19,893 bases of DNA from Candidatus Micrarchaeia archaeon (GCA_049976305.1 JBMFIM010000014.1:1-19893); one strand, 5' to 3'. Positions 673 through 15,207 are shown, numbered from the stretch's first letter. Notes: generated from the letters alone by a model not told the origin. Program-made: numbers and translations.

Positions 673-2982
673 ATGCTAAAGCACATAGAGCTTCAGAACT
701 GGAAGACGCACAGGTCTACGTCGCTAGATTTTGCAAAGGGCACAAACATACTTGTCGGGCAGATGGGAGCTGGCAAAAGCTCAGTGCTTGACGCCATCGC
801 CTTCGCCCTCTTTGGCAAGTACCCTGCGCTCCAACACAGGCAGGTTACAGTAAGCGACATAATAACAAACAGGCCTGTGCAGATGCAAGAGGCCAGCGTC
901 AGGCTAAGCATGGAAATACAGGGCAACGTCTATGACATAACAAGGAAGATAGAGCTCAACGGCACAACCTCTGCAACAATAAGCAAAAATGGCTCTTACC
1001 TGCAGTCTCAGCCGCAAAGGGTGAACGAGCAGGTTGAGAAGATATTGGGCATAGACTACGACCTTTTCATGCGCGCAATCTACTCAGAGCAGAACAGACT
1101 TACCTACTTCCTTGAGCTTTCGCCAGGAGAGAGGAAAAAGGAAATAGACGACCTTCTCGGCCTGAGCGCGTTCGCCACTGCATATGACAACACCACCTCT
1201 CTTATAAACAGGATAAATGACAGAATAGAGGACCTTGAAGGCCTTGCGAAAAGCCAGGACATTGAGGGCATGAAGAAGGCAAAGGAGGAATTGGCAAGCA
1301 AGCTGGCAGATACTAGCAGCAAGCTCGGCGGTAAAAAGCTAGAGCTAGAAAAGGCTAGCGAAAAGGCTAAGCAGGCTAGGCAAAGGCTAGAAGAAGCAAA
1401 GGCGGCGATGGCTAAAAAGCAGGAGCTAGGCGAGAAGAAGGCAAAGCTTGAAAGCAAGAAGCAAACGCTCGCAAAGGAGCTCGAAGAGCTAAAGGCAAAG
1501 CTGAGCATTGGCACAGAGCAGCTAGAGAAAAAGCTTGAGGAGCAGAGAAAAAGGGTTAGCGAGCTGAGCGAGCAAAGCGCTGAGCTTGAGAAAAAGGCAA
1601 AGGAGGCGCTTGAGGCAAAGGCCAGGCTCAATGCAGAGGCAGAGGAGCTTGCAAAAAAGGGCGAAGAGGCTAAGAAGATTTCTGAAAGGCTAAAAGGCAA
1701 TTCATCGCAGGAATTGCTCAAGCTGGCAGAGGCAATGAAGAAAGAGCTTGATTCGCTGCTGGAGGAGCAGGCTAAGCAGCAGGCTCAGATAAGCGAGAAT
1801 ATGAAGTACATGGAAGAGCTGAAGAGGCACATAGCAAAGTGCCCTGTATGCGAAAGAGAGTTGACGCCAGAGCTTGTAGATTCGCTTATTGCAAGCAAGC
1901 AAAAGGCCATAGACATCGCCAGCGGGCAATTGGCGAGGGTAAGCAAGGAGGTTGAGGAAAAGAGGCTTAGCATAAAAAATGCTGAGCAAAAGGCAAAAGA
2001 GCTTGAGCTCTATGAACAGAAGCTTGCTGAGCTAGGCGATGTTGCAAGCAGGCTAGAGCATGCTAAGGAAGAGCTAGGAAAAGCTGAGAAAGAGGCCGGG
2101 GAGCTTGGAAAGAAAAAAGAAGAGAAGGCTAGGGAGCTCGATCAGGCAAACAAGGAGCTGGCAAAGCTCGAAGCCCTGCACGACGAAGCTGAGAGAAAGA
2201 AAAGATACGAGCTAGAGCTTGAAGATGCTGAGCGTGAGCTTGTAAACATTGAAAAGGAAATTGCTGAGATAAGGGTAAGCCAAGAGGAAATCGACAAGCT
2301 TAATGCCGAGTACACTGCTGCAAGCGCTGAGCAGGCAAAGCTAGGCGCAGAAGTAAGAGGCTTGGAGGCTATGCTTGAGCAGCTAAAGGCCCAGCTGGCA
2401 GACAAGGAAAAGCAGCTCGGCGAGGCGCAAAGGCTTAAGGAGGAGATAGAAAAGAAGAAGCTTGCTGCGAGCGAGCTGGCAAAGTACAAGAACGCGCTTG
2501 CAGACACCCAAGTTACGCTTAGAAGCAAGATGGTAGAGTACATAAACGCTGTTATGCAGAGCATATGGCCTGAGCTTTACCCGTATGCCGACTACCAGGG
2601 CATAAGGCTTGAGCCTACTGACGACGACTATGTGCTCATGCTGAGAACGAACAGGCAAGGAAAAGAGTGGGAGCCTGTAGAGGCGATAGCAAGCGGGGGC
2701 GAAAGGAGCGTAGCATGCTTGGCAATGCGAGTAGCGTTTGCATTGGTGCTTGTCCCCAACCTCAAGTGGCTAATACTCGACGAGCCAACGCACAACATAG
2801 ATAGGCAAGGCATAGAGAAGCTGGTAAGGGCGATAGGAGAAGCTTTGCCAAAGTACATAGAGCAGATATTCATAATAACACACGACGAGCTGCTCAAGCA
2901 AGTGCCTAACGCCAGGATCTATGTCTTCTCGAGGGACAAGGCAGAGCAGGGAGAAACGCAGATAGAGGAGGTGAGCGCATGA
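673..2982 (+). CDS. rad50: DNA double-strand break repair ATPase Rad50 (SbcC/SMC family)
   Basis: Walker A GQMGAGKSS, Q-loop YSEQ, long coiled coils, central zinc hook CPVC (1840-1851, aa ~390), signature ASGGERS, Walker B/D-loop LILDEPTHNID and H-loop ITHD. Adjacent to mre11. Confidence 0.96.
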   Translation: MLKHIELQNWKTHRSTSLDFAKGTNILVGQMGAGKSSVLDAIAFALFGKYPALQHRQVTVSDIITNRPVQMQEASVRLSMEIQGNVYDITRKIELNGTTSATISKNGSYLQSQPQRVNEQVEKILGIDYDLFMRAIYSEQNRLTYFLELSPGERKKEIDDLLGLSAFATAYDNTTSLINRINDRIEDLEGLAKSQDIEGMKKAKEELASKLADTSSKLGGKKLELEKASEKAKQARQRLEEAKAAMAKKQELGEKKAKLESKKQTLAKELEELKAKLSIGTEQLEKKLEEQRKRVSELSEQSAELEKKAKEALEAKARLNAEAEELAKKGEEAKKISERLKGNSSQELLKLAEAMKKELDSLLEEQAKQQAQISENMKYMEELKRHIAKCPVCERELTPELVDSLIASKQKAIDIASGQLARVSKEVEEKRLSIKNAEQKAKELELYEQKLAELGDVASRLEHAKEELGKAEKEAGELGKKKEEKARELDQANKELAKLEALHDEAERKKRYELELEDAERELVNIEKEIAEIRVSQEEIDKLNAEYTAASAEQAKLGAEVRGLEAMLEQLKAQLADKEKQLGEAQRLKEEIEKKKLAASELAKYKNALADTQVTLRSKMVEYINAVMQSIWPELYPYADYQGIRLEPTDDDYVLMLRTNRQGKEWEPVEAIASGGERSVACLAMRVAFALVLVPNLKWLILDEPTHNIDRQGIEKLVRAIGEALPKYIEQIFIITHDELLKQVPNARIYVFSRDKAEQGETQIEEVSA
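2967..2974 (+). promoter_or_regulatory. Shine-Dalgarno site of mre11, translationally coupled to rad50
   Basis: GGAGGTGA lies 4 nt before an ATGA start/stop overlap at 2979-2982. Confidence 0.8.
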
Positions 2983-4169
2983 AGATAGGCATAGTATCTG
3001 ATTTCCACCTTGGATATGAGCGGTTTAGGCAAGACGCATATTTGCAGGCAAAAGAAGCATTGGAGAAGGCGAGCGAAGAAGCAGACATGCTGCTTGTGCC
3101 AGGCGACATATTCGACAACAGGGCGCCGAAGCCTGATGTGATTGCTGAGGGCATAAGCCTATTCAAGGAGCTGGCGGAGAAGGAATGGAAGGCCAAGGTA
3201 GTGGAGTACATGGGGCCGGGTAAGGCATATACCTCATTGCCCATAGTAGTAATACCAGGCACACACGAGCGAAGGGCAGTTGGCGAGCTTAATCCAGTAA
3301 GCCTGCTTGCCTTAGCTGGACTTGCTGTTGATGCCAGCGACGCTGTCGTAGTGGTGGAGAAAGGCGGCGAGCGCGTCGCTGTTAGAGGCATAGGAGGCAT
3401 TGCTGAAGAAAGGCTTAGAGAGTACCTGTCAAGCAGCGAATTCAAGCCAGTTGAGAATGCGTTCAACATACTCATGTTTCACCAGTCCCTTTACGAGCTA
3501 ATGCCATTCAGCAAGGACTACATAAGCTTCGAGGATTTGCCAAAAGGCTATGACCTGTATGTATGCGGCCACATCCACAACAGAGTAGAGGACAAGGTGC
3601 ACGGCAAGCCTTTGCTAATACCTGGAAGCACAGTGCTGACGCAGCTCAAAGAAGTCGAGCAGGAGCCAAAAGGCTTCTATCTGTTTGACACATTAGCAGG
3701 CAAGGCGGAGTTCAGGCCAATAAACACAAGAAGGTTTGTTGTAGTGAAAGTAGATGTGAGCAGCAAAGAGCCAGGGGAGCTTATGGAGGAAATAGAAAGG
3801 AAGGTTGCTGAGAAGATAGGCGAAGACAAGCCAATAATAAGCGTAGTGCTGCAAGGCAGGCTCAGGAAGGGCATAAGGCTCGGCGACTTGCCACTTGTAA
3901 AGATCCAGAGGGAGTTTGAAGGAAAGGCCTCTGTAGAAATATCTGGAAATGGAATAGATGAAGCCACAGCAATAGCTGATGAGTTCGCAGCTGGAAAGCT
4001 TGAAGGAGTCTCTGTAAAAGAGTTTGGAATGGGGATATTCCTTAAGAAGCTCCAGGAATTCGGCTACGCGCTGGATACGCCGCCTGCAGCGTTGTTTGAA
4101 AAGCTTTCAACGCAAACGAAGGAAAAAGCAGTTGCAAGCGCGATGGAGCTGCTTTTCGGCAAGCAGTAG
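2979..4169 (+). CDS. mre11: DNA double-strand break repair nuclease Mre11 (SbcD family metallophosphoesterase)
   Basis: Phosphoesterase motifs SDFHLG, PGDIFD, PGTHE (variant of GNHD), MFHQ and GHIH, plus PGS. Overlaps the rad50 stop codon. Confidence 0.94.
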   Translation: MKIGIVSDFHLGYERFRQDAYLQAKEALEKASEEADMLLVPGDIFDNRAPKPDVIAEGISLFKELAEKEWKAKVVEYMGPGKAYTSLPIVVIPGTHERRAVGELNPVSLLALAGLAVDASDAVVVVEKGGERVAVRGIGGIAEERLREYLSSSEFKPVENAFNILMFHQSLYELMPFSKDYISFEDLPKGYDLYVCGHIHNRVEDKVHGKPLLIPGSTVLTQLKEVEQEPKGFYLFDTLAGKAEFRPINTRRFVVVKVDVSSKEPGELMEEIERKVAEKIGEDKPIISVVLQGRLRKGIRLGDLPLVKIQREFEGKASVEISGNGIDEATAIADEFAAGKLEGVSVKEFGMGIFLKKLQEFGYALDTPPAALFEKLSTQTKEKAVASAMELLFGKQ

Positions 4170-11216: not shown

Positions 11217-11696
11217 ATGGACTCTTATGACTCTTGGGCTAGAAACTTCAAGGCAACTATAGACGAAGTTCTAGCCCTTTATGAACCACGAAATGCAAAT
11301 TTAGAAGGCATAATTAGCAGTCTCAATGCTGAGTTTTGGGGCAAGTTCAAAAGGCCTGAAGATTTAGAAGGTTTTTCAGACGACCTGTTTTTTGAAAAGA
11401 TTGCCCAGCTAGCTCTAAATAGTGCTGAAAAGACAACAGGAAAAGATGCAAAAGAAATTGCAAACTCCTGCTATGAACTTGGATTAAAGAAAAACAAAGA
11501 TTATGGTGCCGATAACATTCTAAAGTTTGGCACCATGGGGTTGATAGTGAGGATTGGAGATAAGATAAACAGGCTTAACAACCTTATGAAGAATGGAACT
11601 GCTGCTGTTGCTGAAGAGAAGCTTGTAGACACTATAGAGGACATCTTCAATTATGCGGTATATGGCATAATGCTAAGCAGAGGAAAATGGTTCTAG
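11217..11696 (+). CDS. DUF1599 / nucleotide-modification-associated domain 1 (all-alpha NTP pyrophosphohydrolase-like) protein with N-terminal extension
   Basis: The C-terminal half carries KKNKDYG...GLIVRIGDKINRLNNL...E..VDTIEDIFNYAVY. Starts 5 nt after the PRC-barrel stop. Confidence 0.8.
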   Translation: MDSYDSWARNFKATIDEVLALYEPRNANLEGIISSLNAEFWGKFKRPEDLEGFSDDLFFEKIAQLALNSAEKTTGKDAKEIANSCYELGLKKNKDYGADNILKFGTMGLIVRIGDKINRLNNLMKNGTAAVAEEKLVDTIEDIFNYAVYGIMLSRGKWF

Positions 11697-11748: not shown

Positions 11749-12684
11749 ATGGAAAAAGAAAAACCGCTAAGTTCAGATTTTCTTCCATTGGAAAGGAGAG
11801 AGATTGGAAAGGGAACAGATGAGCAAAGAGTAGTAGCCTATCTGCTAGACCTTTTTGGAATTTCATTAAAAGAAAGTCTAATAGTATATAATGAAACAAG
11901 CATGATGGTTACCTTCACTTCGACCAATAAGAAAGATGAATATACTGAAGTTCTTTTTGCAAGAAAGGAGGGCACAGAAATACGTGATCCTGTTTACATA
12001 CGTTTTGACCCTGAATCGGATGAAGGCACGCCCTCAGTATATATGTTAAAAGATGGAGAAGTAGAACAGGTTAGCAAGGAAAATTGCTATGTATTTACAA
12101 CCAATAGTTTATCAACCAACAAGGAAGTCGGCATAATAATTAAAACAGGGGAAGCCACAGGCCTTGTTTATTTCTATTTTGAACTTGAAATGGAGGGAGA
12201 CGAAGAAACCATTAACGTTCCTGCCCTTCTAGCCACGCCTTTCGATTCTCTCGGAAAGATTGATAAAAGGACAGCTCAAAAATTGAAAAGGGCGGTAGAA
12301 AAAGGATTTAGAGAAGGTGGACCTACTGGAAGCCTAATTTCGCTCTCCGAAGCAGTAAACGAATATATTATAAAAAATAACTTCGTAGATTGTGGTGTCA
12401 TATGTTCTTTCGGCGGCTATGAAGGGCATACTGATTATTTAACGAATGGTATAGAACATCCGGAGCTATTCCCATATATTTTTGTTGTTCCTTTATCTGT
12501 AGGGGATAAGAGGAGCTCTAGAGCGATTAAGGAGATAATACCTCCTCCGCCGTCAATTAAAGAAGGGAAGAAGAATAAAAGAATATGGGAGAATGTAGTA
12601 TTCCGGGTTCAGAATTTGCCACAAGAAGTTAAAGCGCGTAACATAGATGACAAACCAAACTCTTCTAATAGTATTTATTCATAA
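11749..12684 (+). CDS. Hypothetical protein (311 aa), no recognisable family
   Basis: Long AT-rich ORF with its own promoter and RBS. Acidic beta-rich N-terminal region and Pro/Lys-rich C-terminal tail. Confidence 0.8.
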   Translation: MEKEKPLSSDFLPLERREIGKGTDEQRVVAYLLDLFGISLKESLIVYNETSMMVTFTSTNKKDEYTEVLFARKEGTEIRDPVYIRFDPESDEGTPSVYMLKDGEVEQVSKENCYVFTTNSLSTNKEVGIIIKTGEATGLVYFYFELEMEGDEETINVPALLATPFDSLGKIDKRTAQKLKRAVEKGFREGGPTGSLISLSEAVNEYIIKNNFVDCGVICSFGGYEGHTDYLTNGIEHPELFPYIFVVPLSVGDKRSSRAIKEIIPPPPSIKEGKKNKRIWENVVFRVQNLPQEVKARNIDDKPNSSNSIYS

Positions 12685-12732: not shown

Positions 12733-15207
12733 ATGGTGGCGGATTCTACTATTCACTATAGTGCTGAGCGAATCGCTGATGCATTAAAAGACAGAAACGT
12801 GGAAATAAGAGCCCCTATCACTAAAATGCATCAGGCAAATAAGCTAGCAATCGACGCCATAAAAGAATATGCTAGAAGGAATGGCATTACGTCTAATGAG
12901 ATACTTATTTTAGCATCAAATAACAGCTGGAAAGAGTTCGCAAGAGAGCGGCTATCACCAGATTTTGATGGTGCTGAGATAATAACGCCATACGAACTTT
13001 TAGCCAGGGCTTCTCGCAAAGAAAAAGTAATGAATGATTTGTTGTTTATACTCGCTTATAAAGTTCTGCCAAAGCACATGGAGGAAACAGTAAAAATGGA
13101 AACCGCAAAGGAAATGGTGAACGTGCTACATACTCTTGTGGAACAGAAGATCGATCCTGATATTATAAGAACGCCGAAATTTAAAGAGGCGTTTATTGAA
13201 TTTATTAAGGAGAACAAAGTCTATCTGAAAAATTCTTATACCTACCAATTAGGAGAATTTGATGCCGAAGCTTTTCTGGAGCGTTTTATAAATTTCTTGG
13301 ATCAGTATGAGGCGCTCAACCAACAAAGTTACCATGATAGCACTAGCCTAGCCAGCATAAGGCTAGATGCGAAGATAATTGCGGTGTTAAACATAAGCGA
13401 CTTGCCACCATTGCAACAGGAGATTTTGAGCAGGGAAAGAAACTCAAAGAAAATGATTTATACTTCTTCAAATGATTCAATTTACTCCTTTTCTGGGGCC
13501 GATCCTACGCTAAAATCAATGGGTACGGAAAACGTAGACTACTATTGTAAAACGGAAATTTTCAATCTTCCATCAGAAAAGCCAGAACAACAAACAAAAG
13601 AAGGAATAAAAGCAAGGGATTTAGTATATGGTGCGGTGGAAACAGTAAACGAAATGTTCAAAAGCACACCAGAAGGGCCAGTAGCAGTGATGGCCTCTTC
13701 AAACTATTTGGCATGGTCTATAGCTGAAGAGCTGAAGCGCTTAGGAATACCATATACTGCCTTTCTTTCCATACCAACTCACGAAGGAATAAAAGAAGAG
13801 TTTATAAACTTTGTAAAGGGGTTGCTCTCCTCCGATAAAGATACGCAAACACTGCTCAACGCGATCTACAACGCTTTCTCGCCGATATCTGTTAATGATT
13901 ATCTTAATCATAAAGACGAATTTTTATCAGGGAAAAAGGTCAAAGCATTTGAACCATTTTTTGAACTACGAAAAAGGGCGGAAAATAAGGAAGGATTGCT
14001 AGAAGTAGTTAAAGAAGCCATAGAAAGACTTGAAAAAGCCACAAAAGATATTAAAGTAATAAAAACAGCCTACACAATGCTTGAAAGATTAAAGAACTAC
14101 AGTCCAAATTCAGGAATAGATTTGATTACTTGGCTAGAAGCTGAGGAAGTATCAGAAAATTATATAGTCCCGGGACCTCAAAATCTGGTAGTAGGAACGC
14201 CTTACAAGATACTTGGTATTGCTAATTTTCATACAATTATTTATGTTGTTTCCCATCCTAGAGAAAGCATCAGCATTGGAGAGGCTATAACAGGAGTTGC
14301 ATGGCGTATTTCTAACAAAAGTACCAAGCAAGAAAGCATAACTTCACTTCTATCAGCTACAGGGGCTGAAAGAGTAATTTTTGTAGCTGCAAACTATGAG
14401 ACGCTATACAGGCTTGGTCCAATGCAGAAAATAACGAGAAGTGAAAACTATATCGAGACTGAGCGCTCACTACTAAGCGAGGTGCGGGAGTATATCCGAA
14501 ACTATCTCGCTAGGCTTACAGGAATCCACTATTCCTTCCTCAGCTTAATGGAAAAGCCGATCGATCTCTATCGAGAAATATTAGGAGTAAGGCAATCTTC
14601 GCTACTTTCTGAACTCGGCGATAAAGTACATGAAGCACTTGCACAAGGCAAAAAATCAGAAGAAGTTGATGAGGACATTAGGCCGTTTATCAAAAATGCC
14701 GAAGAGCTTATGAAACAGCTTCGGCAGGAGGGCTATGAAGTAATAGGCAGGGAGAAGCGGATAGCAGTAAATTATGCAGATTTCGCCAAAAAGTTAGGAA
14801 TTACACACATAAATCAAACAAACCAAAAGGACTTTGTAGACGCCCATGGAACTATAGACTGCATCATGAAAAAGGGAGATGAGTACCTGATAATAGATTA
14901 CAAAACAGGCCAGAGCACTTATTTTGACGAATATTATTACATGCAGCTTGCATTCTACAGGCTTCTTCTAGCAATTTCTGAAGGGGTCGAAATCAGCAAA
15001 ATAAAGATGGCAATACTCCATATAGGCCTGAGAGGGCCGTTTGAAGACACTGCTAATGCAAAGTCAGAAATCGTAGTGATGAGTGAGCAGGACTATGAAA
15101 AAGCCTTGGATGGTCTACGCAGGCTGTTTGCAAAGCTTTATGAGTATCGCAGAAATCCAGATGCGCTTATTGGGAAAATAGAAATGGCGCTAGCTAGAAG
15201 GAGCTAG
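12733..15207 (+). CDS. Degenerate UvrD/AddB-like SF1 helicase fold fused to a PD-(D/E)XK (RecB-family) nuclease
   Basis: C-terminal nuclease motifs GDKVHEAL, EKRI, GTIDCI, LIIDYKTG and QLAFY. N-terminal SF1 motif remnants DLPPLQQEIL, DSIYSFSGADP and VAVMASSN...LKRLGIPY, with no Walker A. Confidence 0.85.
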   Translation: MVADSTIHYSAERIADALKDRNVEIRAPITKMHQANKLAIDAIKEYARRNGITSNEILILASNNSWKEFARERLSPDFDGAEIITPYELLARASRKEKVMNDLLFILAYKVLPKHMEETVKMETAKEMVNVLHTLVEQKIDPDIIRTPKFKEAFIEFIKENKVYLKNSYTYQLGEFDAEAFLERFINFLDQYEALNQQSYHDSTSLASIRLDAKIIAVLNISDLPPLQQEILSRERNSKKMIYTSSNDSIYSFSGADPTLKSMGTENVDYYCKTEIFNLPSEKPEQQTKEGIKARDLVYGAVETVNEMFKSTPEGPVAVMASSNYLAWSIAEELKRLGIPYTAFLSIPTHEGIKEEFINFVKGLLSSDKDTQTLLNAIYNAFSPISVNDYLNHKDEFLSGKKVKAFEPFFELRKRAENKEGLLEVVKEAIERLEKATKDIKVIKTAYTMLERLKNYSPNSGIDLITWLEAEEVSENYIVPGPQNLVVGTPYKILGIANFHTIIYVVSHPRESISIGEAITGVAWRISNKSTKQESITSLLSATGAERVIFVAANYETLYRLGPMQKITRSENYIETERSLLSEVREYIRNYLARLTGIHYSFLSLMEKPIDLYREILGVRQSSLLSELGDKVHEALAQGKKSEEVDEDIRPFIKNAEELMKQLRQEGYEVIGREKRIAVNYADFAKKLGITHINQTNQKDFVDAHGTIDCIMKKGDEYLIIDYKTGQSTYFDEYYYMQLAFYRLLLAISEGVEISKIKMAILHIGLRGPFEDTANAKSEIVVMSEQDYEKALDGLRRLFAKLYEYRRNPDALIGKIEMALARRS

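Follow-up and report, generated by a model that had tools for sequence, protein, structure and literature searches.

A predicted UvrD-like pseudohelicase fused to a RecB-family nuclease, without a detected motor partner, in a narrow lineage of Micrarchaeota

The window, the whole 19,893-nucleotide stretch of DNA that was analyzed, is one contig (C14) of a 723-kb genome that is 93.7% complete. Relatives that share its gene order and are 52-75% identical in the 824-aa protein considered here belong, according to their named records, to Candidatus Micrarchaeota. The features on which the analysis centers are:

11749..12684, plus strand: 311-aa orphan gene, genus-restricted, AT-rich and fast-evolving, 48 bp upstream of the next feature
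12733..15207, plus strand: gene for an 824-aa fusion of a UvrD-like (SF1A) helicase, predicted to be ATPase-dead, with a RecB-family PD-(D/E)XK nuclease
14500..15168, plus strand: RecB-family nuclease domain of the fusion, with H633, E674, D709, D722-x-K724 and Q738xxxY742 and no Fe-S cysteines

The 824-aa gene is preceded by a PRC-barrel gene, a DUF1599 gene and the orphan, and its ORF overlaps the end of a convergent 3′ neighbor, which we take to encode malic enzyme. The locus is a stable chromosomal site with housekeeping neighbors and no defence island; PADLOC returned only generic nuclease matches, and scans of the local sequence for promoters, terminators and repeats found nothing exceeding chance. 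The GC content of the gene is 0.39 vs 0.45 for the genome, and among 390 ORFs of at least 250 aa it ranks ninth lowest in GC and seventh lowest in GC3. Pfam detects only PDDEXK_1 in the protein (residues 613-803, E 3e-12, with PF12705 above the cut-off) and neither a UvrD domain nor a PF21445 match, and single-sequence searches of Pfam, NCBIfam and the PDB leave the N-terminus without a match. C272 and C710 are the only cysteines, so there is no four-Cys Fe-S set, just as a model's reading of this DNA, hereafter the original prediction, had it.

Because Pfam finds no UvrD domain, helicase ancestry was put to a profile test. When 1.84 billion representatives were searched with phmmer, the 824-aa protein had 73 matches; the top eight lack Walker A and B, and among 42 long matches scanned, 36 carry a UvrD domain and six the nuclease alone. 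In hhalign, a profile of nine degenerate sequences aligned with one of 35 UvrD-bearing archaeal sequences (including P0066, itself partly degenerate) with probability 100 and E 4.3e-75 over 784 collinear columns. Residues 1-560 alone matched this active archaeal family at 99.92% (E 1.4e-34, 524 columns), vs 55% for an AddA profile and 0.28% for an AddB profile. With profiles of equal size, four sequences each, the query scored 66.8 bits against the archaeal family, 0.8 against AddA and 1.1 against AddB; the AddA and AddB sets are thin, each consisting of four bacterial proteins labeled by gene order and motifs, and the active archaeal family likewise fails to match the thin AddB profile. The combined family profile spans PcrA residues 8-632 (E 1.4e-50), and these alignments support a 1A/1B/2A/2B architecture by sequence homology. 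Among PDB sequences, the degenerate profile matches best to the nuclease domain of a 1095-aa chain in 6ppu/7sjr (E 8e-9), presumably mycobacterial AdnB, and the feature neighbors in the ESM Atlas include bacterial “inactivated superfamily I helicase” and ADDB_N clusters. Judged by profile similarity, the 824-aa protein shares common ancestry with the active archaeal UvrD–PD-(D/E)XK family. The profile-profile comparison thus upheld descent from a UvrD-nuclease fusion, but the nearest relative is a stand-alone archaeal family, not AddA.

The degenerate proteins form a single clade (support 100 in both trees), here called the dead clade, that is sister to the sampled active family and not nested inside it; hosts of the active family are Thermoplasmata, Nitrosopumilus, Nanoarchaeota and other Micrarchaeota. 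The dead clade keeps a PcrA-like YxFxGAD where the active family has FQGGS, and an early split therefore fits. A separate, partial inactivation is seen in genus g11, whose members keep Walker A, have DE changed to DG and have lost the motif III Gln; these nest among active family members. The branch that separates archaeal proteins from bacterial outgroups has a support of 80-90, and the free trees part the dead clade from AddB. However, outgroup branches are long and the AU test does not reject a constrained clade of dead proteins plus AddB (p 0.47), so that the tree by itself leaves independence from AddB unproven; the independent inactivation that had been proposed rests instead on profile similarity and shared family features. 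The single-chain layout was probably inherited from the stand-alone active family, since that family, too, lacks an AddB-like neighbor in the loci examined. Among 65 neighbors of up to 900 aa at 21 active-family loci, there is no conserved partner, and a few of them are DNA methylase, HSDR_N or DNA repair genes; on inspection, those loci hold no second family member.

The fully degenerate form is present in all six genomes of the window’s genus (Micrarchaeaceae) among 118 family genomes searched, in which the remaining strong matches that could be read have canonical or g11-type motifs. A sister lineage comprises twelve metagenome loci (L075-L086) with overlapping gene order, and a query from it matches this genus alone among 401 phylum genomes. 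PF00580 is found in 21 of the 118 family genomes, and neither it nor PF13361 in any of the six of the window’s genus, whose completeness of 75-94% means that a partner could be unassembled; AddA, sought in the same six, was likewise not found. The window’s genome at its 93.7% completeness has no PF00580, PF21445 or PF13087 match, in keeping with the claim that a motor partner is lacking, and its three weak PF13245 matches (E 8.5e-5 to 6.2e-4) are read as generic P-loops. When the genus genomes, the window’s included, were searched with the active-family profile for an active paralogue, as the original prediction had advised, only the dead gene came up. Genome G006 has two copies of the gene; these lie on parallel syntenic contigs (L003 and L004) in a bin with 5% contamination, and duplication was rejected. 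In the open-access literature, we found no title or abstract opening that points to the dead clade. The dead clade is a predicted pseudohelicase-nuclease without a detectable motor partner and is narrowly distributed.

What became of the motor was assessed by comparing residues in 11 degenerate and 30 active sequences. The roles of Walker A and B, the motif III Gln and the motif IV and VI Arg residues in SF1 helicases are established, and the corresponding positions in the window are as follows:

12799..12840, plus strand: site of motif I (Walker A), where GxGKT is absent and none of 10 relatives has the Lys
12898..12999, plus strand: motifs Ia and Ib; neither the Ia Phe nor the Ib His remains, and Thr85 of Ib is kept in 6 of 10
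13375..13419, plus strand: motif II (Walker B), now LNxSD; neither Asp nor Glu in any of the 11, a new Leu and a new Ser being fixed clade-wide
13459..13506, plus strand: motif III; ATP-coupling Gln in 0 of 11, ssDNA-stacking loop YxFxGAD kept, with Phe253 in 11 of 11
13507..13545, plus strand: site of motif IV, deleted or unalignable; a helix with conserved Tyr271 comes next
13681..13755, plus strand: motif IVa; Arg in 1 of 11, Asn324 in 10 of 11
14188..14244, plus strand: motif V; Thr489 in 11 of 11, His replaced by Tyr or Phe in 10 of 11, KAKG lost
14335..14376, plus strand: motif VI; arginine finger in 1 of 11

The peptides quoted in the original prediction all lie where it put them, and the alignment leaves its motifs I, Ia, Ib, II, III, IVa, V and VI in place. 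Its motif IV, YYCKTEI, has to be given up: the NxRS motif and ~15 surrounding residues are deleted or unalignable, and VDYY belongs to the next helix (ILxYA in the active family). That the ATPase motifs are degenerate is borne out, as each of seven ATP residues is kept in at most one of the 10-11 degenerate relatives; the Thr that follows the Walker A Lys survives in 1 of 10 and the motif IV Arg in 1 of 11, and the new residues of motif II are L219 and S222. Eight of the ssDNA contacts named for Deinococcus radiodurans UvrD (drUvrD) in the pertinent part of PMC3797037 can be mapped here. Motif III retains two, Phe (11 of 11) and Tyr/Phe (8 of 11), and the IVa Asn (10 of 11) and Ib Thr (6 of 10) bring the number kept to four; the other four, the Phe of Ia, the His of Ib and the Arg of both III and IVa, have gone. 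The kept motif residues also agree with the motif list in PMC3321194. Given these counts in 11 degenerate vs 30 active sequences, the ATP site is erased and the ssDNA path half kept, although the retained contact residues may be structural and serve folding. Only 12 of 87 N-terminal columns that are conserved in the active family are retained in the dead clade, compared to 12 of 19 C-terminal columns.

The nuclease, by contrast with the motor, is intact, as had been foreseen: H633, E674, D709, D722, K724, Q738 and Y742 are invariant in all 11 degenerate and all 30 active rows, and the seven residues fit the RecB-family motifs for AddA and AddB laid out in the motif section of PMC3321194. Shorter forms of the protein were sought among 3738 candidates of 30-379 aa and none was found, in a search that is insensitive, since an N-terminal-only paralogue exists in L008. 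Viral contigs gave seven weak matches (E 4e-7 to 1e-4), all within residues 540-790, the nuclease end.

We posit that the 824-aa protein is a nuclease guided by ssDNA and independent of ATP, with a probable conflict role and with recognition retuned under selection, a proposal that in our judgment could fall either way. An archaeal UvrD–PD-(D/E)XK fusion would have lost its ATP-binding and hydrolysis residues while its RecB-type catalytic residues stayed. The dead motor would then bind a single-stranded tail or junction through the remnant channel, where the motif III aromatic loop, the IVa Asn and the V Thr could hold the ssDNA and offer it to the nuclease in the manner of the Chi-scanning domain of AddB or RecC, minus the translocase, and the RecB-type domain would cut the DNA without ATP. 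Rapid, partly positively selected change in the dead motor would retune recognition. We infer that the protein has neither ATPase nor unwinding activity; DNA binding by the dead motor and gating of the nuclease are likewise predicted from sequence. Because the dead motor changes fast and partly under positive selection, a conflict role (against mobile DNA or at a host interface) may tentatively be preferred to housekeeping repair. The loss of half of the contacts, the stable housekeeping locus and the generic PADLOC matches argue against such a role and against ssDNA reading.

Comparison of the window with L003 gives residues 1-560 a dN/dS of 0.20 (0.17-0.20 in the window’s lineage), the nuclease 0.12 and the orphan 0.25, with nine neighboring genes at 0.01-0.13 (Dph5, 0.128); the carbamate-kinase gene, with values of 0.1-2.9, is no clean control and was kept apart from these nine, and the L004/L074 pair is too close to inform on selection. 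Along the gene, dS varies from 0.37 to 2.8 per 100 codons vs 0.36-0.55 in its neighbors, which suggests allele exchange. Identity of the helicase-nuclease falls to ~28% where neighboring genes stay at ~65%. In the sister lineage, the frame is fully open in 12 of 12 loci, and the seven distinct alleles have pairwise dN/dS of 0.49-0.94 vs 0-0.13 for the adjacent CBS gene; across 456 or more amino-acid changes and 32 in-frame indels, none of them has acquired a stop, with ~32 stops expected if the gene were neutral. Codon site models, run in our own implementation, give an M0 dN/dS of 0.83 for this lineage and favor M2a over M1a (LRT 66, with ~11% of sites at dN/dS ~4.8), a result that recombination, evident from branch lengths that differ across gene thirds, may inflate. 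M2a is significantly favored in each third with its own tree (LRT 25.7, 35.2 and 10.4), whereas two null simulations and the CBS gene, used as controls, give an LRT of 0. The flagged sites lie mostly, but not all, in the dead motor. Positive selection is seen in the sister lineage only, the window’s own lineage offering too few alleles. An adenine-specific, DGR-like substitution bias was sought and not seen; changes are mainly from G/C. The helicase-nuclease gene evolves like a conflict gene and is not decaying, as the intact frames, the absence of stops and the N-terminal dN/dS of 0.20, the check for decay that the original prediction had proposed, attest.

The same data bear on whether only the nuclease is selected, the dead motor being a drifting scaffold for folding or solubility that recognizes nothing specific. 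We consider this unlikely but worth taking seriously. So few surviving N-terminal columns, an overall dN/dS of 0.83 in the sister lineage, and the low GC3 with substitutions mainly from G/C are what drift might leave behind; moreover, the family is patchy (present in 42 of 248 genomes of the order, 21 of them from another family and classed by score only) and hence dispensable. Yet every full-length member retains the ~560 N-terminal residues, even though neighboring genes have diverged to ~50% identity between lineages; L219 and S222 have become fixed in the clade, N-terminal dN/dS in the window’s lineage is 0.17-0.20, and a site class with dN/dS >1 is favored over the neutral model, all of which speak for a selected motor remnant.

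Another possibility is that the protein serves as an AddB- or RecC-like subunit in trans with a different motor (HerA-like ATPase, SF2 helicase, MCM or Mre11-Rad50), perhaps providing the end-resection nuclease of cells without NurA. Searches of the genome yielded four matches to DUF87/HerA-like proteins and four to the DEAD family; Rad50, Mre11 and RadA, named from motifs, are encoded 6-12 kb upstream, and NurA was sought in the genome and not found. However, none of the 118 family genomes has NurA, and since most have no helicase-nuclease either, there is no complementary pattern. The linkage to rad50/mre11 is gone in L005-L008 and L075-L086, and fast, positively selected evolution would be unusual for a core repair subunit. 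We regard a trans-acting subunit as improbable.

The orphan raises another option, to which we assign a similarly low likelihood: the nuclease could be a toxin or abortive effector that is checked or triggered by the 311-aa protein, with the dead motor binding protein, not DNA. Homologues of the orphan lie upstream on the same strand in five of six genus genomes, directly so in four and one gene further upstream in the fifth; in the sixth, the contig ends within the helicase gene. There are none in 112 other family genomes. The orphan matches its neighbor in AT-richness and rapid evolution, a second copy sits 3′ of the helicase-nuclease gene in L006 (E 6.7e-8), and an orphan allele of ~82% identity appears to accompany a 99%-identical helicase-nuclease, the pairing being reconstructed. 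Against this, the orphan is missing from L004 and the sister-lineage loci, where other genes abut the helicase-nuclease start codon, and is therefore not obligatory; searches of families, structures and the Atlas gave it no match. The orphan is thus a possible, non-obligatory partner. Finally, a highly diverged AddB orthologue or a decaying pseudogene is very unlikely, even with the unrejected AU constraint and the AddB-like Atlas neighbors in its favor, given an N-terminal AddB match of 0.28% and 1.1 vs 66.8 bits (on a thin AddB profile), the absence of Walker A and an Fe-S set, the retention of a motif III loop that AddB has lost (PMC3321194, motif comparison), the failure to find AddA in six of six genomes, which also contradicts a plain AddB with addA elsewhere, and intact frames with invariant catalytic residues.

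We return to the reading of the protein as an ATP-independent, ssDNA-guided nuclease and to the systems it most resembles. RecC has an inactive nuclease-like domain and acts together with RecB and RecD, and PriA belongs to SF2. Like the active archaeal fusion, the dead-clade protein is collinear throughout, has the same nuclease tail and 2B features, and is encoded by a single gene in non-conserved contexts; unlike it, the dead clade has not kept ANPGTGKT, DELQD, GDxKQ, NxRS, HKAKG and TRA, and its motif III loop is that of PcrA. With AddB it shares an inactivated SF1 fold joined to a RecB-family nuclease, and the dead motor of AddB reads ssDNA (Chi), but according to the same motif comparison (PMC3321194) AddB differs in Walker A, absent here, and in the motif III loop, retained here. 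The dead clade also lacks the 4Fe-4S cysteines of many, not all, AddB proteins (the four fetched AddB share four invariant Cys), an ADDB_N (PF21445) match, an AddA in the genus and an N-terminal profile match. RecC resembles it in having a fully dead SF1 fold without Walker A (PMC3321194, same section) but the dead clade has kept its nuclease residues, and a search for an SF1 motor found none. AdnAB provides the best PDB match, the nuclease domain of the 6ppu/7sjr chain, and AdnA keeps the motif III loop (as tabulated in PMC3321194); however, AdnA retains both Walker motifs and has AdnB as its partner, whereas the dead clade has one chain and neither motif. Lineage-restricted loss of ATPase motifs has a parallel in D. 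radiodurans PriA, described in the relevant part of PMC4504706 as a stand-alone dead helicase that still binds DNA, although PriA has no nuclease and acts in replisome reloading. On these comparisons, the 824-aa protein would work most like AddB or RecC minus the pump; the AddB membership features examined are absent from it, save that the AU test admits a grouping with AddB.

The section of PMC5704561 on UvrD-Cas4-like fusions places them in bacteria and mesophilic archaea, frequently stand-alone or next to type III R-M or Dcm/Vsr genes, and does not mention an inactivated form. The active archaeal family (PF00580+PF13361+PF12705, about 890-920 aa) is probably this fusion, and the 824-aa protein has the same UvrD-like N-terminus fused to a pfam12705 nuclease; four genus names sought in the supplements of PMC5704561 gave no link between its tree and the sequences here. 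Near dead-clade loci, no type III R-M or Dcm/Vsr genes were seen, and one Mrr-like gene lies nearby in L004. More speculatively, and in our view with modest prospects, the protein could be a single-chain, ATP-independent restriction or defence nuclease in which the SF1 motor has become a diversifying specificity module. Such a module would read sequence or structure in a Chi-like manner with no translocase; like a target-recognition domain, it would be exchanged and be under positive selection, and the orphan could serve as a dispensable regulator.

Textbook inactivated SF1 domains, those of AddB and RecC, read ssDNA that is pumped through by an active partner. The dead clade would represent the same conversion of motor to reader, probably made separately in archaea and persisting without a detectable SF1 motor; its reach is limited to one genus and a sister lineage of uncultured archaea known from sequence alone. 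In g11, the partial inactivation provides a naturally occurring intermediate. Should cleavage specificity lie with the dead motor, the passage from helicase fold to DNA reader would become directly testable, and an ATP-free nuclease selective for structure or sequence could be obtained.

The genes that accompany the inactivated helicase-nuclease in the window and at loci carrying its homologues include the following.

Window 11217-11696: DUF1599 protein of 159 aa (the domain, nucleotide modification associated, lies at the C-terminus)
Window 11749-12684, + strand: orphan gene, upstream of the helicase-nuclease gene
L008:1309-2385: 358-aa paralogue comprising the dead 1A/1B half only
L004:11340-12239: Mrr-like gene, matched by PADLOC as a type IV restriction enzyme (E 3e-45)
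L075:3228-4226 and L083:2810-3814 (sister-lineage metagenomes): gene that we take to be carbamate-kinase-like, directly downstream of the helicase-nuclease homologue

The orphan belongs to a family of ~300-aa proteins found in the window's genus only (also in L003, L005, L006, which has two copies, and L008), with between-species identity of 17-20% and no conserved catalytic-looking motif. Its GC3 is the lowest among 390 ORFs, and differences between alleles are concentrated in the C-terminal half. By eye, the N-terminal part of the DUF1599 protein resembles its C-terminal domain.

Across 281 aa, the L008 paralogue shares 24% identity with the complete gene, which sits 1.2 kb downstream. A second, partial inactivation of the UvrD-nuclease family was observed in another genus, g11 (G033, G037 and G044; L061, L062, L140 and L141; protein P0066): Walker A is retained, the Glu of Walker B and the Gln of motif III are gone, and at L061 and L062 the gene is convergent with a tRNA-splicing endonuclease gene.

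Rad50 and Mre11 are encoded at window 673-4169; a profile search for NurA (PF09376) found it in none of 118 Micrarchaeaceae genomes. The Mrr-like gene lies three genes downstream of the helicase-nuclease homologue in L004. The L004 and L003 contigs (C54 and C40) are syntenic and carry the same housekeeping genes within one bin, G006, which is probably a mixture of two related species.

Between L075 and L083, the carbamate-kinase-like gene has dN 0.106 and dS 0.037. Compared with other alleles, these two give dN/dS of 0.9-1.45 with intact frames, and the remaining alleles, compared with each other, give 0.1-0.19; the L075/L083 gene may have undergone neofunctionalisation.
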